Source of the DNA: a virus
Length of the DNA: 40,473 nt
Reading direction: 5' to 3' (one strand)
Virus genome (UHGV): UHGV-0129806
Made by a program: the position numbers and the translations under genes. Positions 25,515 to 31,057 of the stretch are shown here, piece by piece (the stretch's first letter is position 1; each line of letters opens with the position of its first letter). The notes beneath the pieces are model-generated. The model had not been told where the DNA came from. It made no database searches and worked only from the letters and a program-made list of their open reading frames with translations.

Positions 25515-25784
25515 ATGGATAATCTATATAAATGCAATCAATGTCATAAACACACTCCTTTAATTAGAAAATCTGAAAATATCACGAAGGATGTCGAACA
25601 CCATTATGCTGAATGTGCAAATTGTGGATATAAAGCGACAATTATGTATATGAATACCGAAATCAAGTTATTAATGTATGAACAAAGAAAAACAAAATTT
25701 GGTACAAAAAAGAAAGGTAAATTGACAGAAAAGCTAAATAGACTAATTTCTCAATTAAGAAAAGAAGTCGAGGGATCGAGTTGA
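25515..25784 (+). CDS. Small zinc-ribbon protein
   Basis: CNQC...CANCG four-Cys ribbon. Confidence 0.5.
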   Translation: MDNLYKCNQCHKHTPLIRKSENITKDVEHHYAECANCGYKATIMYMNTEIKLLMYEQRKTKFGTKKKGKLTEKLNRLISQLRKEVEGSS

Positions 25785-26196: not shown

Positions 26197-26796
26197 ATGA
26201 AAACAAAAAAACTATTATTGCCAATGCATTTACAATTCTTTGCTGATAATCCAGATACTGGCACTGGAGATACGGACCAACCGGCCGGAGGTCAAGAACA
26301 AACGCCACCAGAAGATGATAGTAAAGATAAAGGCAATGGAAAAACGTTTTCTCGTGATGAAGTAGCAAAAATGATCGCTGCTGAAGTATCAAAAACAAAA
26401 GAAGCTTGGGAAAAAGAGCAACAAGAAAAACAAGCAGAAGCAGAAAAACTGGCAAAAATGAATGCTCAGGAAAAAGCTGAACATGAAAAGAAACAGCTAG
26501 AAGCAAAAATTGCGGAATTGGAACGTAGTCAAGCATTAGTTTCTATGTCAAAGGAAGCTTCTAAAATGCTTTCAGAAGCTAGTTTGCCGCATGACGATGA
26601 TTTGCTAGGATTGATTGTTTCAGATGATGCAGAAGCTACAAAAAAAGCTGTCGCTATTGTTACGAACTATGTATCAATGATTAAGAAAGAAAATGCTCGC
26701 CAAAAAACACCAGGTGAGGGTGGACAATTTTCAACTGATAAAAAAGAAACCGAATCAGTTGCAGCTCTTGCAGCAAGTAAACGAATTGTAAAATAG
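26197..26796 (+). CDS. Scaffolding protein
   Basis: N-terminal MHLQFFA motif, acidic and coiled-coil (E/K/Q-rich), directly upstream of the capsid gene. Confidence 0.75.
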   Translation: MKTKKLLLPMHLQFFADNPDTGTGDTDQPAGGQEQTPPEDDSKDKGNGKTFSRDEVAKMIAAEVSKTKEAWEKEQQEKQAEAEKLAKMNAQEKAEHEKKQLEAKIAELERSQALVSMSKEASKMLSEASLPHDDDLLGLIVSDDAEATKKAVAIVTNYVSMIKKENARQKTPGEGGQFSTDKKETESVAALAASKRIVK

Positions 26797-26808
26797 GAGG
26801 AAATATAA

Positions 26809-27741
26809 ATGAAGAAAAAACAATTAATGAAAATGGATATTCAAATGTTTGCTCAAACATGGAATCCAGACAACGTCACTGTATTAGAGAAAAAAGATGG
26901 AACAATTCCAGATAAGTACAACACTTTAATTTTAAAAGATGTGATGGAAAATTCTAAGTTAATGCAGTTGGCTAAATATGAAGAAATGGACGGCAAAGAA
27001 AAGAAATTCGAATACTTTGCAGAAGGTCCTGGGGCGTACTGGGTTGGTGAAGGCGAAAAGATTAAAACGTCTAAACCTAAATGGTTAAACGTAACGATGA
27101 CTGCGAAAAAAATTGGTGTTATTATCCCAGTTTCTCGAGAATATTTAACTTATAAGATGTCTGATTTCTTTACTCAAATGCAACCAAAAATCGCAGAAGC
27201 ATTTTATAAGAAAATTGATGCGGCTACTATCCTTGATAAAGAAAATCCATTCTCTCAATCTATTGAAAAATCTGTCATTGCAGCTAGTAATGTAATTGAG
27301 GGCGACTTGACATATGACAACATTTTAGCATTAGAGGATTTGCTTGGAGAAGGTGAATACGATCCGAATGCTTTCATTTCTAATCGTAAGAATCGTACAG
27401 TGTTACGTGAAGCAAGTAAAAAAATTGGTGACACAACTCAATTTATTTATGATCGTGTCAGCAATACTATTGATGGACTACCTGTAGCAGATCTAAAATC
27501 TATGGATAAAGGAAACCTTTATACTGGTGATTTTGATTACTTGCGCTATGGTATCCCATTTAACATTAATTTCAAAATTTCAGAAGAAGCTCAATTATCT
27601 ACTTTAACGAATGAAGACGGTACGCCTGTCAACTTGTACGAACAAGAATTGGTTGCTTTACGAGCTACAATGGATATTGGTTTCATGGTCATCAAAGATG
27701 AAGCATTTGCTAAGATTCAACCAAAAGCTGCGGGGGAGTAA
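26809..27741 (+). CDS. Major capsid protein
   Basis: N-terminal ...MDIQMFAQ motif shared with the scaffold; size and position. Confidence 0.8.
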   Translation: MKKKQLMKMDIQMFAQTWNPDNVTVLEKKDGTIPDKYNTLILKDVMENSKLMQLAKYEEMDGKEKKFEYFAEGPGAYWVGEGEKIKTSKPKWLNVTMTAKKIGVIIPVSREYLTYKMSDFFTQMQPKIAEAFYKKIDAATILDKENPFSQSIEKSVIAASNVIEGDLTYDNILALEDLLGEGEYDPNAFISNRKNRTVLREASKKIGDTTQFIYDRVSNTIDGLPVADLKSMDKGNLYTGDFDYLRYGIPFNINFKISEEAQLSTLTNEDGTPVNLYEQELVALRATMDIGFMVIKDEAFAKIQPKAAGE

Positions 27742-27803
27742 CTAGCCCTGTTGTTGGAAAAGTAACACCGACAACAAATGGGGCGACAATCGAACTAACT
27801 TAG
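27714..27803 (+). other. -1-frame cassette overlapping the 3' end of the capsid gene; encodes a conserved peptide and forms a stem-loop
   Basis: The -1 frame, open from 27714, reads ...GGVTSPVVGKVTPTTNGATIELT* (stop TAG 27801-03). Stem-loop CCCTGTTGTTGG...CCGACAACAAATGGGG at 27746-27783. Paralogous to 29754-29828. Confidence 0.45.
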
Positions 27804-27814
27804 GTGGTGTTTAG

Positions 27815-28147
27815 ATGTCAGAGATAGCAAATGATGTAAAAAAATTATTAAATGGTAGTCTTGATGAAAAATTAGAAATCATTGAAAGACGTACAAAAGA
27901 TCGGCTTCAAAATATATTGAATGTCACTGAGTTACCAAAAAGCTTTGATTCAGTTGTATATGAAGTAACTTTAAAACGATTTAATCGTATTGGCCAAGAA
28001 GGAATGCAATCTTATTCTCAAGAAGGTTTATCTATGGCATTTCCAGACTCTGATTTTTCTGAATATCAAGATGAGATTGAAGAGTATAAGAACAAGGAAA
28101 TAGAAGAACTTTATAAGCCTAAACGTGGGAGGTTTACATTTTCATGA
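27815..28147 (+). CDS. Head-tail connector (gp6-like)
   Basis: Size and position after the capsid gene. Confidence 0.6.
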   Translation: MSEIANDVKKLLNGSLDEKLEIIERRTKDRLQNILNVTELPKSFDSVVYEVTLKRFNRIGQEGMQSYSQEGLSMAFPDSDFSEYQDEIEEYKNKEIEELYKPKRGRFTFS

Positions 28148-28479
28148 GATATTTAGATGAAATTACCTTTGTAAAAAAATCTTCAGAATCGCATTATGAT
28201 CCAAATTCAGGTGAATGGATTGAAGAAGAACCGTTTAGAAAAACTGCTGATGTCAATGCAACTGACATTGGTACAGATCGTTCTATTACTATTTTCGGAA
28301 GCATTAAAGAAGGGGCTAAGGTCATTAGGACACAGCCCCTTTTTGTTATTCCAGAATTTGATTACATTGAGTTTGAGGATAAAACTTGGGAAGTTATTAC
28401 AAGTAGAGTTCCTGCATTAAGAAATAGCTTAATTATTCAGGAAGTGATTATTGATGGCAAGAAATCAAGTAAGAATTAA
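28144..28479 (+). CDS. Head closure / head-tail adaptor
   Basis: Synteny; ATGA overlap. Confidence 0.55.
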   Translation: MRYLDEITFVKKSSESHYDPNSGEWIEEEPFRKTADVNATDIGTDRSITIFGSIKEGAKVIRTQPLFVIPEFDYIEFEDKTWEVITSRVPALRNSLIIQEVIIDGKKSSKN

Positions 28480-28834
28480 TGGATTAGCTGGAATTTCTAA
28501 AAAACTAAAGAGAAATGCTCAACTTGATGATGTGAAAAAAGTTGTTAGAAATAACACAGCAGAATTAACCGCTAATATGCAAGCTGAAGCCGGAAAAGTG
28601 TTAACTGGACACTGGGAAGGTAAAAAGTTTGTTAAACCCACTGGGGCAACAAAAAGAAGTATCGTTATGAGGCTTTCGAACAATGGTTTTTCTGGGCATA
28701 CAGGACCAGGAACAGAATACGCACCGTATTTAATAAACGGTACGAGATTTATGGTGAAACGTGATTTCTTTTTACCACCGCTGAAACAACAAAAAGTGAA
28801 ATTTAGAACGGACTTGGAAAGGTTGATGAAATGA
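28454..28834 (+). CDS. HK97 gp10-like head-tail joining protein
   Basis: Synteny. Start ATG 28454 with SD GGAAGTGA. Confidence 0.55.
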
Positions 28835-29220
28835 TTAAAACAAGAGATCAATCAATCTTCGATGAAGTGTATAAGAAGTGTCAATCACTGGGTTATGAAA
28901 CATACGATTATAAACCTATGAATGATGTAGGTTATCCATTTGTCGAATTAGAAGATACTCAGACACTGCACCAAGCCAATAAAACTGATATTAAAGGTTC
29001 GGTTACATTGAATCTATCTGTATGGGGATTGGCAAAAAAACGTAAACAAATATCGGATATGGCTTCAGCAATTTTTGCTGAGGCTTTATCTATTTATGAA
29101 ACGGAAGGTTATTATTGGTCGCTAAATATCCAATCAAGCGGTATTCGGTTAGTAGATGACATTTCGACTAACACACCATTGAAGCGGGCAATGATATCTT
29201 TAGAATTCAAAATACTATAG
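28831..29220 (+). CDS. Tail completion protein
   Basis: Synteny; ATGA overlap. Confidence 0.5.
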
Positions 29221-29235
29221 AGAGAAGGAATATAA

Positions 29236-29766
29236 ATGGCTAATGAAGCAAAAGTAGCGGCTAAAGGTATTGATATTATTTTACTTTTCCGTTTGTTAAA
29301 AAAATCAAAAGAGGAAGCAGCATGGAAATTAGCTTTCCAGACAGAACATGAAAATACAAAAACAAAAGATAGTGACTCCGTGGCCACTAAAGATGGTCCG
29401 ATTCGTATCCCAGGATCATTGGAAATTGATTTTTCGGCAACATCTATTTTATCAGTCGGTGATCCATATGTTGACCAGCTAGAAGAAGCTTTAGACAATG
29501 ACGATATTATTGAAATCTGGGAAATCAACAAAGCAGAAAAAGGCACAGGAAATAATGTTGACAAATACAAGGCAACCTACTACCAAGGATATGTAACATC
29601 ATTTGGTAAATCACCTAATGCTGAAGATACCGTAGAGGTTTCATTAGAATTTGGTATCAATGGTAAAGGCGCAAAAGGATTTGCAACATTAACTGCTGAT
29701 CAAGAAGAAGTAGTTCAATATGTATTCAAAGATACGACTATTGAGAAAGATGATCTGGGAAAGTAG
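29236..29766 (+). CDS. Major tail protein
   Basis: Size of 176 aa; position before the Ig-like ORF and the chaperone pair. Confidence 0.75.
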   Translation: MANEAKVAAKGIDIILLFRLLKKSKEEAAWKLAFQTEHENTKTKDSDSVATKDGPIRIPGSLEIDFSATSILSVGDPYVDQLEEALDNDDIIEIWEINKAEKGTGNNVDKYKATYYQGYVTSFGKSPNAEDTVEVSLEFGINGKGAKGFATLTADQEEVVQYVFKDTTIEKDDLGK

Positions 29767-29828
29767 ATAGCCCTTCTGTGGGAAGTGTAACTCCTACAGT
29801 CGATGGGGCTTCTATTGAATTAAGCTAA
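29754..29828 (+). other. -1-frame cassette at the 3' end of the major tail gene: slippery G GGA AAG + stem-loop + conserved peptide
   Basis: Heptamer G GGA AAG at 29757-63. The -1 frame reads GKVDSPSVGSVTPTVDGASIELS* (stop TAA 29826-28). Hairpin AGCCC..CTGTGGGA agtgtaac TCCTACAG..GGGCT starts 6 nt downstream. Confidence 0.5.
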
Positions 29829-29843
29829 GAAAGGAAAATAAAT

Positions 29844-30302
29844 ATGGTGGATACTTTTAAAATTTATAAAGGCCAAACCGAAGTTGTTTCCGGCACATCA
29901 CCTTTAACTATAACAGGAATGGAACCTAACACCTCTGTGCCAGTTGGTGAGTACCAAGTAACTCGTGTTGTTAATGGGAAAGAATCAGAGCGAGTAGATA
30001 TTCCAGCTTTTAAAACATTGTCTATTGCTGTAACTGGCTTAGAGTTTTCTCCTAAAACATCAACAGCAGATGCGGGTACTGCAGGTAGCCGACAAATCAC
30101 AGCAACTGTCTTGCCTGAAAATGCAACCAACAAAAAAGTAACCTATAAGATTACGCCTGAAACAGAAGGTCTTGCTGTCTCTGAAACAGGAAATATTACT
30201 TGGACAGAAGCGGTACCGGCTGGTGTTTATACCACAACAGGAACATCAGAGGATGGTAAAAAAACAGCTCAACACACCTTAACATTGAATAATCAAGCTT
30301 AA
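29844..30302 (+). CDS. Ig-like (Big_2) domain tail protein
   Basis: ITATVLPENATNKKVTYKITPE is Big_2-like. Own SD AAAGGAAA. In frame with the upstream -1 cassette across a single TAA. Confidence 0.7.
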   Translation: MVDTFKIYKGQTEVVSGTSPLTITGMEPNTSVPVGEYQVTRVVNGKESERVDIPAFKTLSIAVTGLEFSPKTSTADAGTAGSRQITATVLPENATNKKVTYKITPETEGLAVSETGNITWTEAVPAGVYTTTGTSEDGKKTAQHTLTLNNQA

Positions 30303-30356
30303 AATAAAATTTAGAGGGCAGCTTAGCGGCTGTCCTTTTCTTATGGAGGAAAAGAC

Positions 30357-30707
30357 ATGCAAATCGAAATTAAAGGGAAAAAATATAACTGTATTTTTGG
30401 AGTCAAGTTTATTCGTGAATTGGATAAGCAGCATGGGGTAGTTCGTAATGATGTGAATCTTGGTATGGGACTAACAACATTATTACCGCAGCTAGTAAGT
30501 GGAAATATCGTTGTTCTATCTGATGTACTTTACACAGCTACCATTACGGAAAAAAGTAGACCTTCTAAGGATGAAGTAGATGAGTTTGTTGAAACTGTTG
30601 ATGATATTGAGGCGTTATTTGATGAAACGTTGAAAAACTTAGAAGAAAGCAATGCGGGAAAGTTAACGGTCAGAAATTTCAAGAAAGCTCTGATGGAGAA
30701 CAAGTAA
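30357..30707 (+). CDS. Tail assembly chaperone (gpG-like)
   Basis: Position before the tape-measure gene. Contains the slippery heptamer G GGA AAG at 30656-30662. Confidence 0.75.
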   Translation: MQIEIKGKKYNCIFGVKFIRELDKQHGVVRNDVNLGMGLTTLLPQLVSGNIVVLSDVLYTATITEKSRPSKDEVDEFVETVDDIEALFDETLKNLEESNAGKLTVRNFKKALMENK

Positions 30708-31057
30708 GAGAGGAACTAACCTCAGCTGAAGCTTATGAAAATATTCTTATTAATTGTTTTCGTTACCTAGAAATTACTGATTTATCAGAAATTGAACGAA
30801 TGACTTTGTATGAATATGAAGTTAGGCTATTGGCGTTTCAGTTAAAAAGACTTGACCATGAAAGAGACCTCTATCTTCAATCTTGGCTAAATAACCAAAT
30901 TAAGGCGACTAAAGGTAAAAAATCTGAACCTTATTATAAGGAATTCAATAAGTTTTTCAATTATGAAGAGCGAGAGAAGCTTATTTTGGGTAAATCATTA
31001 ATTGATGAAAAAGTTGATATAGGAGCAATTGATTTATTAAGAAAAGCAAATAAGTAG
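30357..31057 (+). CDS. Tail assembly chaperone -1 frameshift fusion product (gpGT-like)
   Basis: The -1 frame is open from 30626 to the stop at 31055-57. Classical X XXY YYZ site G GGA AAG at 30656-62. The track ORF 30800..31057 is the distal part. Confidence 0.7.

Follow-up and report, generated by a model that had tools for sequence, protein, structure and literature searches.

The 40,473-nucleotide viral DNA analysed here (UHGV virus genome UHGV-0129806, whose whole stretch is called the window below) contains the head-tail module of a temperate siphophage of Enterococcus faecalis, with the genes ordered as scaffold, major capsid protein (MCP), connector and neck genes, major tail tube protein (MTP), a 152-residue open reading frame (ORF), tail chaperone G/GT and tape measure. 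The MCP gene (26809-27741; 310 residues; Pfam Phage_capsid PF05065, E 1.9e-31; PHROG 10 major head protein) and the MTP gene (29236-29766; 176 residues; Pfam Phage_tail_2 PF06199, E 8.4e-18; PHROG 238), which lie on the plus strand, as do the cassettes and the catcher gene described below, are each followed by a short cassette encoding, in the -1 frame, a peptide termed here the tag. Behind the tail cassette lies the 152-residue ORF (29844-30302), termed the catcher, composed of an N-domain resembling fibronectin type III (fn3) and a Big_2 immunoglobulin-like (Ig-like) domain. We consider it probable that the tags are added to the structural proteins by recoding, that tag and catcher are the two parts of a split fn3 domain, and that the Ig-like protein is docked in this way on both head and tail.

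Two cassettes behind the capsid and tail genes

As the earlier note on this DNA had claimed, the two cassettes directly follow the capsid and tail genes and specify similar peptides in the -1 frame; they have 42 of 62 nucleotides (68%) and 14 of 21 residues in common. Each is composed of a slip site abutting the 0-frame stop, a spacer of 5-6 nucleotides, a stable hairpin and the tag in the -1 frame. A hidden Markov model (HMM) of the tag, searched against the six-frame translation of the window, gave exactly two matches, the capsid copy (E 5e-9) and the tail copy (E 1.5e-10).

The MCP gene ends in GCG GGG GAG TAA (0 frame ..KAAGE), in which the candidate -1 slip site G GGG GAG (27732-27738) is directly followed by the 0-frame stop TAA (27739-27741). 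The capsid tag (27735-27803), read in the -1 frame as G GVTSPVVGKVTPTTNGATIELT and closed by the stop TAG (27801-27803), corresponds to the predicted fn3 strands A-B discussed below. The context GGGGGAGTAA of the capsid slip site is present as a single copy in the window, with 0 expected, and NCG GGG GAG TAA recurs 3' of capsid and tail-tube genes in different genera. G GGG GAG does not fit the X XXY YYZ heptamer; it is probably functional because it is the commonest slip site across genera, in a census that is biased since the search pattern contained it, and the A-site tRNA would re-pair with one G-U at the middle position. Of the two capsid sites previously put forward, comparison with relatives favors G GGG GAG and speaks against CCA AAA A.

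The MTP gene ends in CTG GGA AAG TAG (0 frame ..DDLGK) with the canonical X XXY YYZ site G GGA AAG (29757-29763), directly followed by the 0-frame stop TAG (29764-29766). The tail tag (29763-29828; VDSPSVGSVTPTVDGASIELS; likewise predicted strands A-B) runs in the -1 frame to the stop TAA (29826-29828), and the -1 reading as taken from the MTP end to this stop is GKVDSPSVGSVTPTVDGASIELS. The same heptamer had been pointed out at the slip site of the chaperone gene, and it is present at both places: from the copy at 30656-30662, the -1 frame is open to 31057, the end of the T-ORF, as expected for a chaperone G/GT frameshift, and no significant structure lies downstream of this site (z -0.79), unlike in both tag cassettes. 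As a bare sequence the heptamer is no rarity, with 6 copies in the window versus 4.1 expected; the informative feature is its position. If frameshifted, the products are expected to contain the junction-spanning peptides ..AAGGVTSPVVGK.. (or AAGEVTSPVVGK) in the capsid protein and ..LGKVDSPSV.. in the tail protein.

In the window, the tail tag and the catcher gene are in the same frame, separated by the TAA and five codons; the intergenic GAAAGGAAAATAAAT (29829-29843) provides, as read from the sequence, a Shine-Dalgarno-like AGGA for the catcher gene. The other loci checked have an ATG of their own for the catcher, which in several of them (L004, L027, L028) lies in a frame different from that of the tag. 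The slip heptamers of relatives include G GGA AAA, G GGA AAC, A AAA AAA and T TTA AAA. A further cassette type, with the context AGT GTC AAA ATA A and a tag frame reading ..SVKITAPEVLSVDPTTDGAVIELQ up to its stop, was seen at L031, L033, L075 and L088 (e.g., L031, minus strand, 10244); its slip site is possibly C AAA ATA or similar.

The stem-loops described earlier close behind the slip sites are found in both cassettes, starting 6 nucleotides downstream of the capsid heptamer (27745-27784; 5 + 8 base pairs; -17.4 kcal/mol, z -3.74, with 0 of 200 shuffles as stable) and 5 nucleotides downstream of the tail heptamer (29769-29810; 6 + 8 base pairs; -19.3 kcal/mol, z -2.87, 3 of 200 shuffles). 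No T-run follows either hairpin, and a terminator scan called neither of them terminator-like. Among 65 unique cassettes, the native sequences average -16.4 kcal/mol, compared with -11.3 kcal/mol when synonymous codons are resampled for the same peptide, with z <0 in 97% and z < -2 in 45%; against such synonymous recoding, the capsid hairpin of the window is also the stronger, and the tail hairpin has z -2.4. The in-frame tail copy of phage phiEf11 has a weaker hairpin (z -1.1). When the window structure is laid over 35 non-redundant cassettes, 69.5% of the cells are paired versus 33-50% with the partner slid, and covariation in the same set is 0.106 versus 0.078, a value reached by 4 of 500 shuffles. 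Unusual conservation is seen at two bases, the one preceding the Pro codon and the last one of the Gly codon, which together make up the CCC:GGG core of the stem. We regard the hairpin as a real, moderately supported candidate for a frameshift stimulator.

Coding and probable expression of the tag

A search of related phages for the -1-frame motif, covering 17 genomic loci in which the 152-residue ORF has a homologue, recovered P.V..V.PT..GA.I.L. in the -1 frame, always stopping at the same length, as would follow from the earlier note. The tag stands directly 3' of capsid proteins of two families (PF05065 and PF25209) and of tube proteins of two families (PF04630 and PF06199); the upstream ORFs are unrelated yet end alike at the nucleotide level, in NCG GGG GAG plus stop or in G GGA AAR/C plus stop. 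When 20 cassettes are compared in the tag frame, the mean column entropy is 0.74, 0.71 and 1.54 at the first, second and third codon positions, and this variation at third codon positions therefore indicates selection on the tag peptide. Moreover, a DNA pattern specifying only the slip site and the stem bases retrieved 74 stretches from IMG/VR, every one of which (74/74) encodes the tag in that frame.

The tag is also reached without a -1 shift. The MTP of phiEf11 (197 residues) has the tag in frame via one extra base in the slippery run, and the protein P0121, which represents a 159-member cluster, has it fused in frame to the MTP, with the extra A being judged from the protein sequence. By an extra A, GGGAAAG of the window (29757-29763) would become GGGAAAAG, or CCAGAAAAAG as in phiEf11 (L001 4503-4512), with the tail tag in frame; slippage of this run during replication could move a phage back and forth between a partly and a fully tagged tail tube. 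The phiEf11 capsid gene ends in TCA AAA AAA TAG, followed by the tag again in the -1 frame. Tags in the +1 frame come after CCC TAG, CCC TAA or CCC AGC TAA in Efquatrovirus TV51, Carnobacterium phage cd2 and the Staphylococcus aureus Triavirus and Phietavirus, and in-frame tags are found in the MTP of phage 187 and in ORF70 of Kayvirus ISP. According to the recoding literature, Ig-like add-ons are reached by -1, +1 or in-frame reading alike (PMC5009743). Two MCP species, of ~38 and 41 kDa, have been reported in phiEf11 virions (Stevens et al. 2016, PMC5221750). The proposal that expression of the two cassettes yields C-terminal extensions with a common tag receives strong comparative support from the codon signature, the slip layout, the in-frame and +1 versions, the hairpin excess and the phiEf11 bands, and we have little doubt that both are expressed as tags, judging from the sequences.

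Tag and catcher as probable parts of one fn3 domain

The N-terminal 60 residues of the catcher (29844-30023) correspond to fn3 strands C-G without A-B, and are followed by the Big_2 Ig-like cargo (30027-30302, including the stop codon; Pfam Big_2, residues 62-144). Among the Big_2 domains that Foldseek matched to it are those found in the phi29 capsid and in the lambda tube protein gpV. Every homologue of the 152-residue protein starts with M..FKIYKG, which resembles the fn3 C strand. In the AlphaFold2 model of the protein (predicted local distance difference test (pLDDT) 95), strands C, C', F and G are formed, and the would-be E strand (residues 19-30) is left unpaired, as is expected if strand B is missing. 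An exhaustive profile HMM search with the N-domain matched 171 cluster representatives; of the 150 listed, nearly all are matched from residue 1-10 onwards. The exceptions (P0421, P0437, P0392, P0403, P0361 and P0508) are single chains that carry a tag-like motif, a loop of 6-9 residues and the N-domain. The window tag, Met-Val-Asp and the N-domain are collinear with these natural single-chain domains at 38-42% identity, with the split located in the B-C loop.

The assignment to fn3 is obtained through relatives with the Pfam fn3 profile (PF00041; 84 positions; gathering score 25 bits). For Enterococcus phage EF_TR2, the score is 18.8 bits with the tag alone (fn3 positions 2-22) and 25.1 bits with the N-domain alone (positions 49-82); tag and N-domain joined in silico reach 42.2 and 38.5 bits in one stretch over positions 2-82. 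Similarly, the N-domain of Carnobacterium phage cd2 scores 20.5 bits alone, and 35.2 and 36.0 bits when joined to the tag; the N-domain of P0035 is above the threshold by itself (26.3 bits, positions 36-83). When 23 joins of the window type are built into a profile, its alignment with the fn3-positive joins extends over the junction (hhalign probability 95.9%, E 5e-9). The extensions, of 21-22 residues, cover about fn3 positions 2-22 of 84, so that no whole Ig-like or fn3 domain is appended. These comparisons make it very probable that the tag and the catcher N-domain are two parts of one fn3 domain. Among the functions that the earlier note had offered for the shared peptide was an adhesin-anchoring tag; this pointed in the right direction, and missed that the tag would be the first two strands of an fn3 domain, the rest being supplied by the downstream gene.

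An unsplit form was found at locus L103, where an unannotated 276-residue ORF, which from its position appears to be the tube protein, ends in T TTA AAA TAG, and the -1 frame runs into ..SPVVDTLSATTDGAVVSFKNVNVGDTFRIY.., a single extension that comprises tag, loop and N-domain; no tag cassette is present at the capsid gene of this locus. The unsplit L103 suggests that the domain became divided when its B-C loop acquired a stop and a new start. Once the tag had been copied, a second structure could attract the same protein.

Predicted docking in trans

In the predicted mechanism, some of the ribosomes would slip by -1 on the last two sense codons of the MCP (G GGG GAG) and of the MTP (G GGA AAG), aided by the adjacent 0-frame stop and the hairpin 5-6 nucleotides downstream, and would add 21-22 residues to the C-terminus. 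The tag would then represent β-strands A and B of an fn3 domain, not a free-standing peptide, and the remaining five strands (C-G) would come from the first 60 residues of a separate protein, the product of 29844-30302, with its C-terminal Big_2 domain. On an assembled capsid or tail-tube subunit, the headless fn3 domain is assumed to fold around the tag, in a manner of fragment (donor-strand) complementation, so that the Big_2 domain would be docked non-covalently on both head and tail, in a displayed copy number set by the frameshift efficiency. The Big_2 domain may act as a weak surface or glycan adhesin. That tag and catcher assemble in trans on the virion is, on the present comparisons, reasonably likely.

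The pattern of a donor-strand system is present, in that the catcher chain is headless and the missing A-B strands are carried by the tagged chains. In all 55 of the 55 loci that hold a catcher, its gene starts 0-75 nucleotides after a tag, and a second tag lies ~2 kb off, at whichever major structural gene the catcher does not adjoin. In the window the catcher stands behind the tail gene; in Bacillaceae, Saphexavirus, cd2 and phage 187 it stands behind the capsid gene. Its cargo is variable: one or two Big_2 domains, He_PIG, G5, an SAP-like domain, or none. In Kayvirus ISP (L024 4337-5746), ORF70 ends in a tag, ORF71 consists of catcher, Big_2 and tag, and ORF72 is a catcher alone; the three ORFs are adjacent and are all annotated as virion proteins confirmed by mass spectrometry, which suggests that they may form a chain built by successive strand complementation. 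TmpH, homologous to the ISP proteins, is reported to lie on the tail sheath (PMC8236893).

Catchers with a C-terminal tag were also observed as an 89-residue Staphylococcus protein ending in PENVEVNANEDSADVSAE (L015, L016 and L017, 10001-10270) and as P0018, ending in PPVVESITSTTDGASINLE. Since some catchers carry a tag of their own, chains could form, and such proteins could be circular permutants or head-to-tail polymerizing units. A helix pair of the SAP/HeH type (..IKAWLTAHNIDFTGKTIKADLLALV..) was seen as catcher cargo at L013 (9995-10351) and L014 (10001-10336), and P0273 has an SAP/HeH-like module in frame on an MCP homologue; frameshifting attaches a module of this kind straight to the capsid protein in Listeria A118 and PSA. 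Homologues of the window MCP have in-frame Ig-like (PF18316) or SAP-like C-termini, and the MCP C-terminus therefore appears to be a permissive display site.

Tags and catchers are distributed over E. faecalis temperate phages, Efquatrovirus, Saphexavirus, S. aureus Triavirus and Phietavirus, Kayvirus and Bacillaceae prophages. We lean towards the view that Firmicute phages have a natural, modular two-part docking system, in which a tag of ~20 residues, added to virion proteins by -1, +1 or in-frame fusion, would be bound by a headless fn3 catcher of ~60 residues with interchangeable cargo (Big_2, He_PIG, G5, SAP-like or tag); recoding would set the copy number, and a phage would pass from partial to full tagging, or back, when a single base of the slippery run changes.

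Alternative interpretations

Several results weigh against docking of a split fn3 domain. The catcher alone is predicted confidently (pLDDT 95) and therefore might be stable untagged. In a Pfam scan, the tag-catcher joins of the window itself gave no fn3 match reaching the threshold, and the fn3 link is therefore drawn through relatives; the profile of window-type joins found nothing significant among PDB sequences (best E 0.19), and single-sequence structure prediction of a tag-ERKIN-catcher join was uninformative (pLDDT 54). A fair test of co-occurrence was possible at only 7 IMG/VR loci, 6 of which have a catcher, the exception being a truncated contig. As to the recoding, the capsid heptamer is non-canonical, the covariation of the hairpin is modest and confounded by coding constraints and common ancestry, and mass spectrometry of phiEf11 recovered no extension peptides (PMC5221750).

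Part of this evidence would also fit tags that are expressed by frameshifting and act alone, for instance as β-strands cementing or stabilizing the capsid and the tail, with the likeness to the downstream gene reflecting an old gene fission. The high confidence with which the catcher N-domain is predicted in the absence of the tag agrees with such a role, as do cargo-free catchers (the 73-residue TV51 protein and ISP ORF72), for which decoration is not always an obvious benefit. However, the tag would be two strands of exactly the domain that the catcher lacks, catchers are headless in nearly all of the 150 listed representatives (171 matched) and always adjoin a tag, and the tag and catcher types change together between phage groups; we judge that independently acting tags are unlikely. 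The tail tag, lying in the frame of the downstream gene with only the TAA and five codons in between, and the unsplit form in L103 could further mean that the cassettes are decaying remnants of a continuous fn3 + Big_2 frameshift extension cut by a nonsense mutation, with no useful translation left. This is very improbable in view of the conservation of the split across genera and in different frames, the maintained codon-position signature and slip sites, the frequent in-frame fusions, the hairpins, which are still under selection, and the capsid copy, which is equally conserved though it has no downstream remainder. Read-through of the stop codon from the tail tag into the catcher was rejected because the tag and catcher frames differ in other loci and the capsid tag has no downstream partner.

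Both hairpins are stable, lie just after stop codons and are stronger than the peptide requires, and might accordingly serve as RNA elements only (a terminator, a processing site or an mRNA stabilizer after highly expressed genes), the peptide similarity being a by-product. A terminator role is rejected because T-runs are missing, in line with the terminator scan; in addition, the tag frame varies mostly at its third codon positions, the peptide persists in phages that read it in the +1 frame or in frame within other nucleotide surroundings, and every tag ends at a stop codon with a fixed length, leaving the RNA-only explanation scarcely credible. Finally, the combination of a short tag and an incomplete Ig-like domain has the logic of a covalent isopeptide pair of the SpyTag/SpyCatcher style, and the phiEf11 MTP with its in-frame tag runs at 28-30 kDa instead of 21.5 kDa. 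An MTP adduct with a catcher of ~16.6 kDa would run at ~38 kDa, however, and the MCP shift is only ~3 kDa; the candidate reactive Asp/Asn position in the tag varies (D, N, S, G, T). A covalent link is rejected as highly unlikely because the reactive residue is not conserved and the published band sizes do not fit. No tags were found after the catcher's own stop in the Bacillaceae loci with C-termini ending in ..GE, these endings being acidic Pro/Glu linkers.

Comparison with known systems

The proposed docking of a split fn3 domain by recoded tags is worth comparing with the modules known to be appended by frameshifting to both capsid and tail proteins, as established for A2, A118, A500 and PSA (PMC5009743). 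The known cases include SPP1 gp17.1* (+1, fn3), Lactobacillus A2 gp5B and gp10B (-1, Big_2), and Listeria A118 and A500 (PMC5009743, PMC8718954). As in SPP1, A2, A118 and A500, recoding in the window would take place at the last MCP and MTP codons, with a slip site, a nearby stop, a downstream structure and an Ig-like module; in those phages only a fraction of the subunits is extended, and the same layout, known from sequence, is proposed here. L103 is exactly of the SPP1/A2 type, within the same domain family as the window. In clear contrast to SPP1, A2 and A118, the extension in the window ends after two β-strands, and the rest of the domain comes, together with the cargo, from a separate gene with its own start, and a single protein could in this way be used on head and tail alike. 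It was verified here that complete Big_2 domains make up the extensions of A2 and A118, and that the capsid extensions of PSA and A118 are SAP-like. Listeria PSA (cps and tsh) shifts by +1 at CCC plus stop, and the same shifty stop is seen in Efquatrovirus (GCA CCC TAG) and cd2 (AAA CCC TAA); the PSA extensions, an SAP-like domain on the capsid protein and a 24-residue acidic tail on the tail protein, are not fn3 strands, and the slip sites of the window are of the -1 type. As possible members, Listeria PSA and A118 and Lactobacillus A2 were rejected, their extensions being different modules.

A further precedent is phiEf11, a close relative, for which a -1 shift at AAAAAAA of ORF10 adding 21 residues has been proposed and called speculative (Stevens et al. 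2016, PMC5221750). It resembles the window in the slip site (A AAA AAA TAG), the hairpin and the 21-residue extension; its authors described an isolated capsid extension, with no link to the in-frame tail peptide, to conservation elsewhere or to ORF16 (PMC5221750). In chaperone-usher pili and engineered split-domain pairs, too, an Ig-like fold is completed by strands of another chain; the likeness is one of principle only, as pilins lack one C-terminal strand whereas the catcher lacks two N-terminal strands, and pairs of the SpyTag type are covalent, with the needed residues not conserved in the tags here. In the literature searched, the coverage of which is incomplete, no description was found of a split fn3 domain on phages completed in trans. 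The novelty earlier ascribed to a short peptide shared by capsid and tail is accordingly tempered by the phiEf11 proposal of 2016 and by the capsid and tail modules of A2, A118, A500 and PSA; within the literature searched, what is new is that only two strands are appended and that the domain would be finished by the product of another gene.

Gene context and other features

The head-tail region is 98% identical in nucleotide comparison to vB_EfaS_IME197 and EFC-1, and 93% identical to phiEf11, in the latter case only from position 27753 on. This homology begins inside the capsid tag, so that the 3' part of the tag and everything downstream are common to both phages, and the phiEf11 capsid gene is unrelated (337 residues) with a different slip site; the tag may be a recombination joint between the head and tail modules. 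Downstream of the catcher gene, a G+C-rich inverted repeat followed by TTTTCTT (gagggcagcttagcggctgtccttttctt) occupies 30303-30345 and is likely an intrinsic terminator overlooked by the simple scan, which would end the transcript of the tail tube and the catcher. It is followed by the tail assembly chaperone G/GT (30357-31057; slip site 30656-30662), in which G is a Phage_TAC_12 protein.

In the head module, a motif like the L27 leader (LQFFA) occurs at the N-termini of the scaffold (..PMHLQFFADN.., 26212-26250) and of the MCP (..KMDIQMFAQTW.., 26824-26862). The L27-leader motif is cleaved by the host Prp-type protease in S. aureus phage 80alpha, and the scaffold and the MCP are probably trimmed by the host enzyme. 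Between the head-morphogenesis and scaffold genes, an 89-residue ORF (25515-25784) contains two CxxC pairs (CNQCHK ... CANCGY) and is zinc-ribbon-like.

Implications

An immediate consequence concerns annotation: PHROG 341 (catcher) proteins are labelled 'major tail protein' in at least ~520 phage records, which is an error on the present reading, and the recoded tags are unannotated. For recoding research, the cassettes add a recurrent non-canonical -1 site, G GGG GAG plus stop. The tag is suggested as a genetically small handle for cargo display on therapeutic Enterococcus and Staphylococcus phages. If the split fn3 domain is indeed completed on the virion, one small Ig-like protein would decorate the unrelated head and tail without a dedicated binding domain, and the phage itself would set the number displayed.

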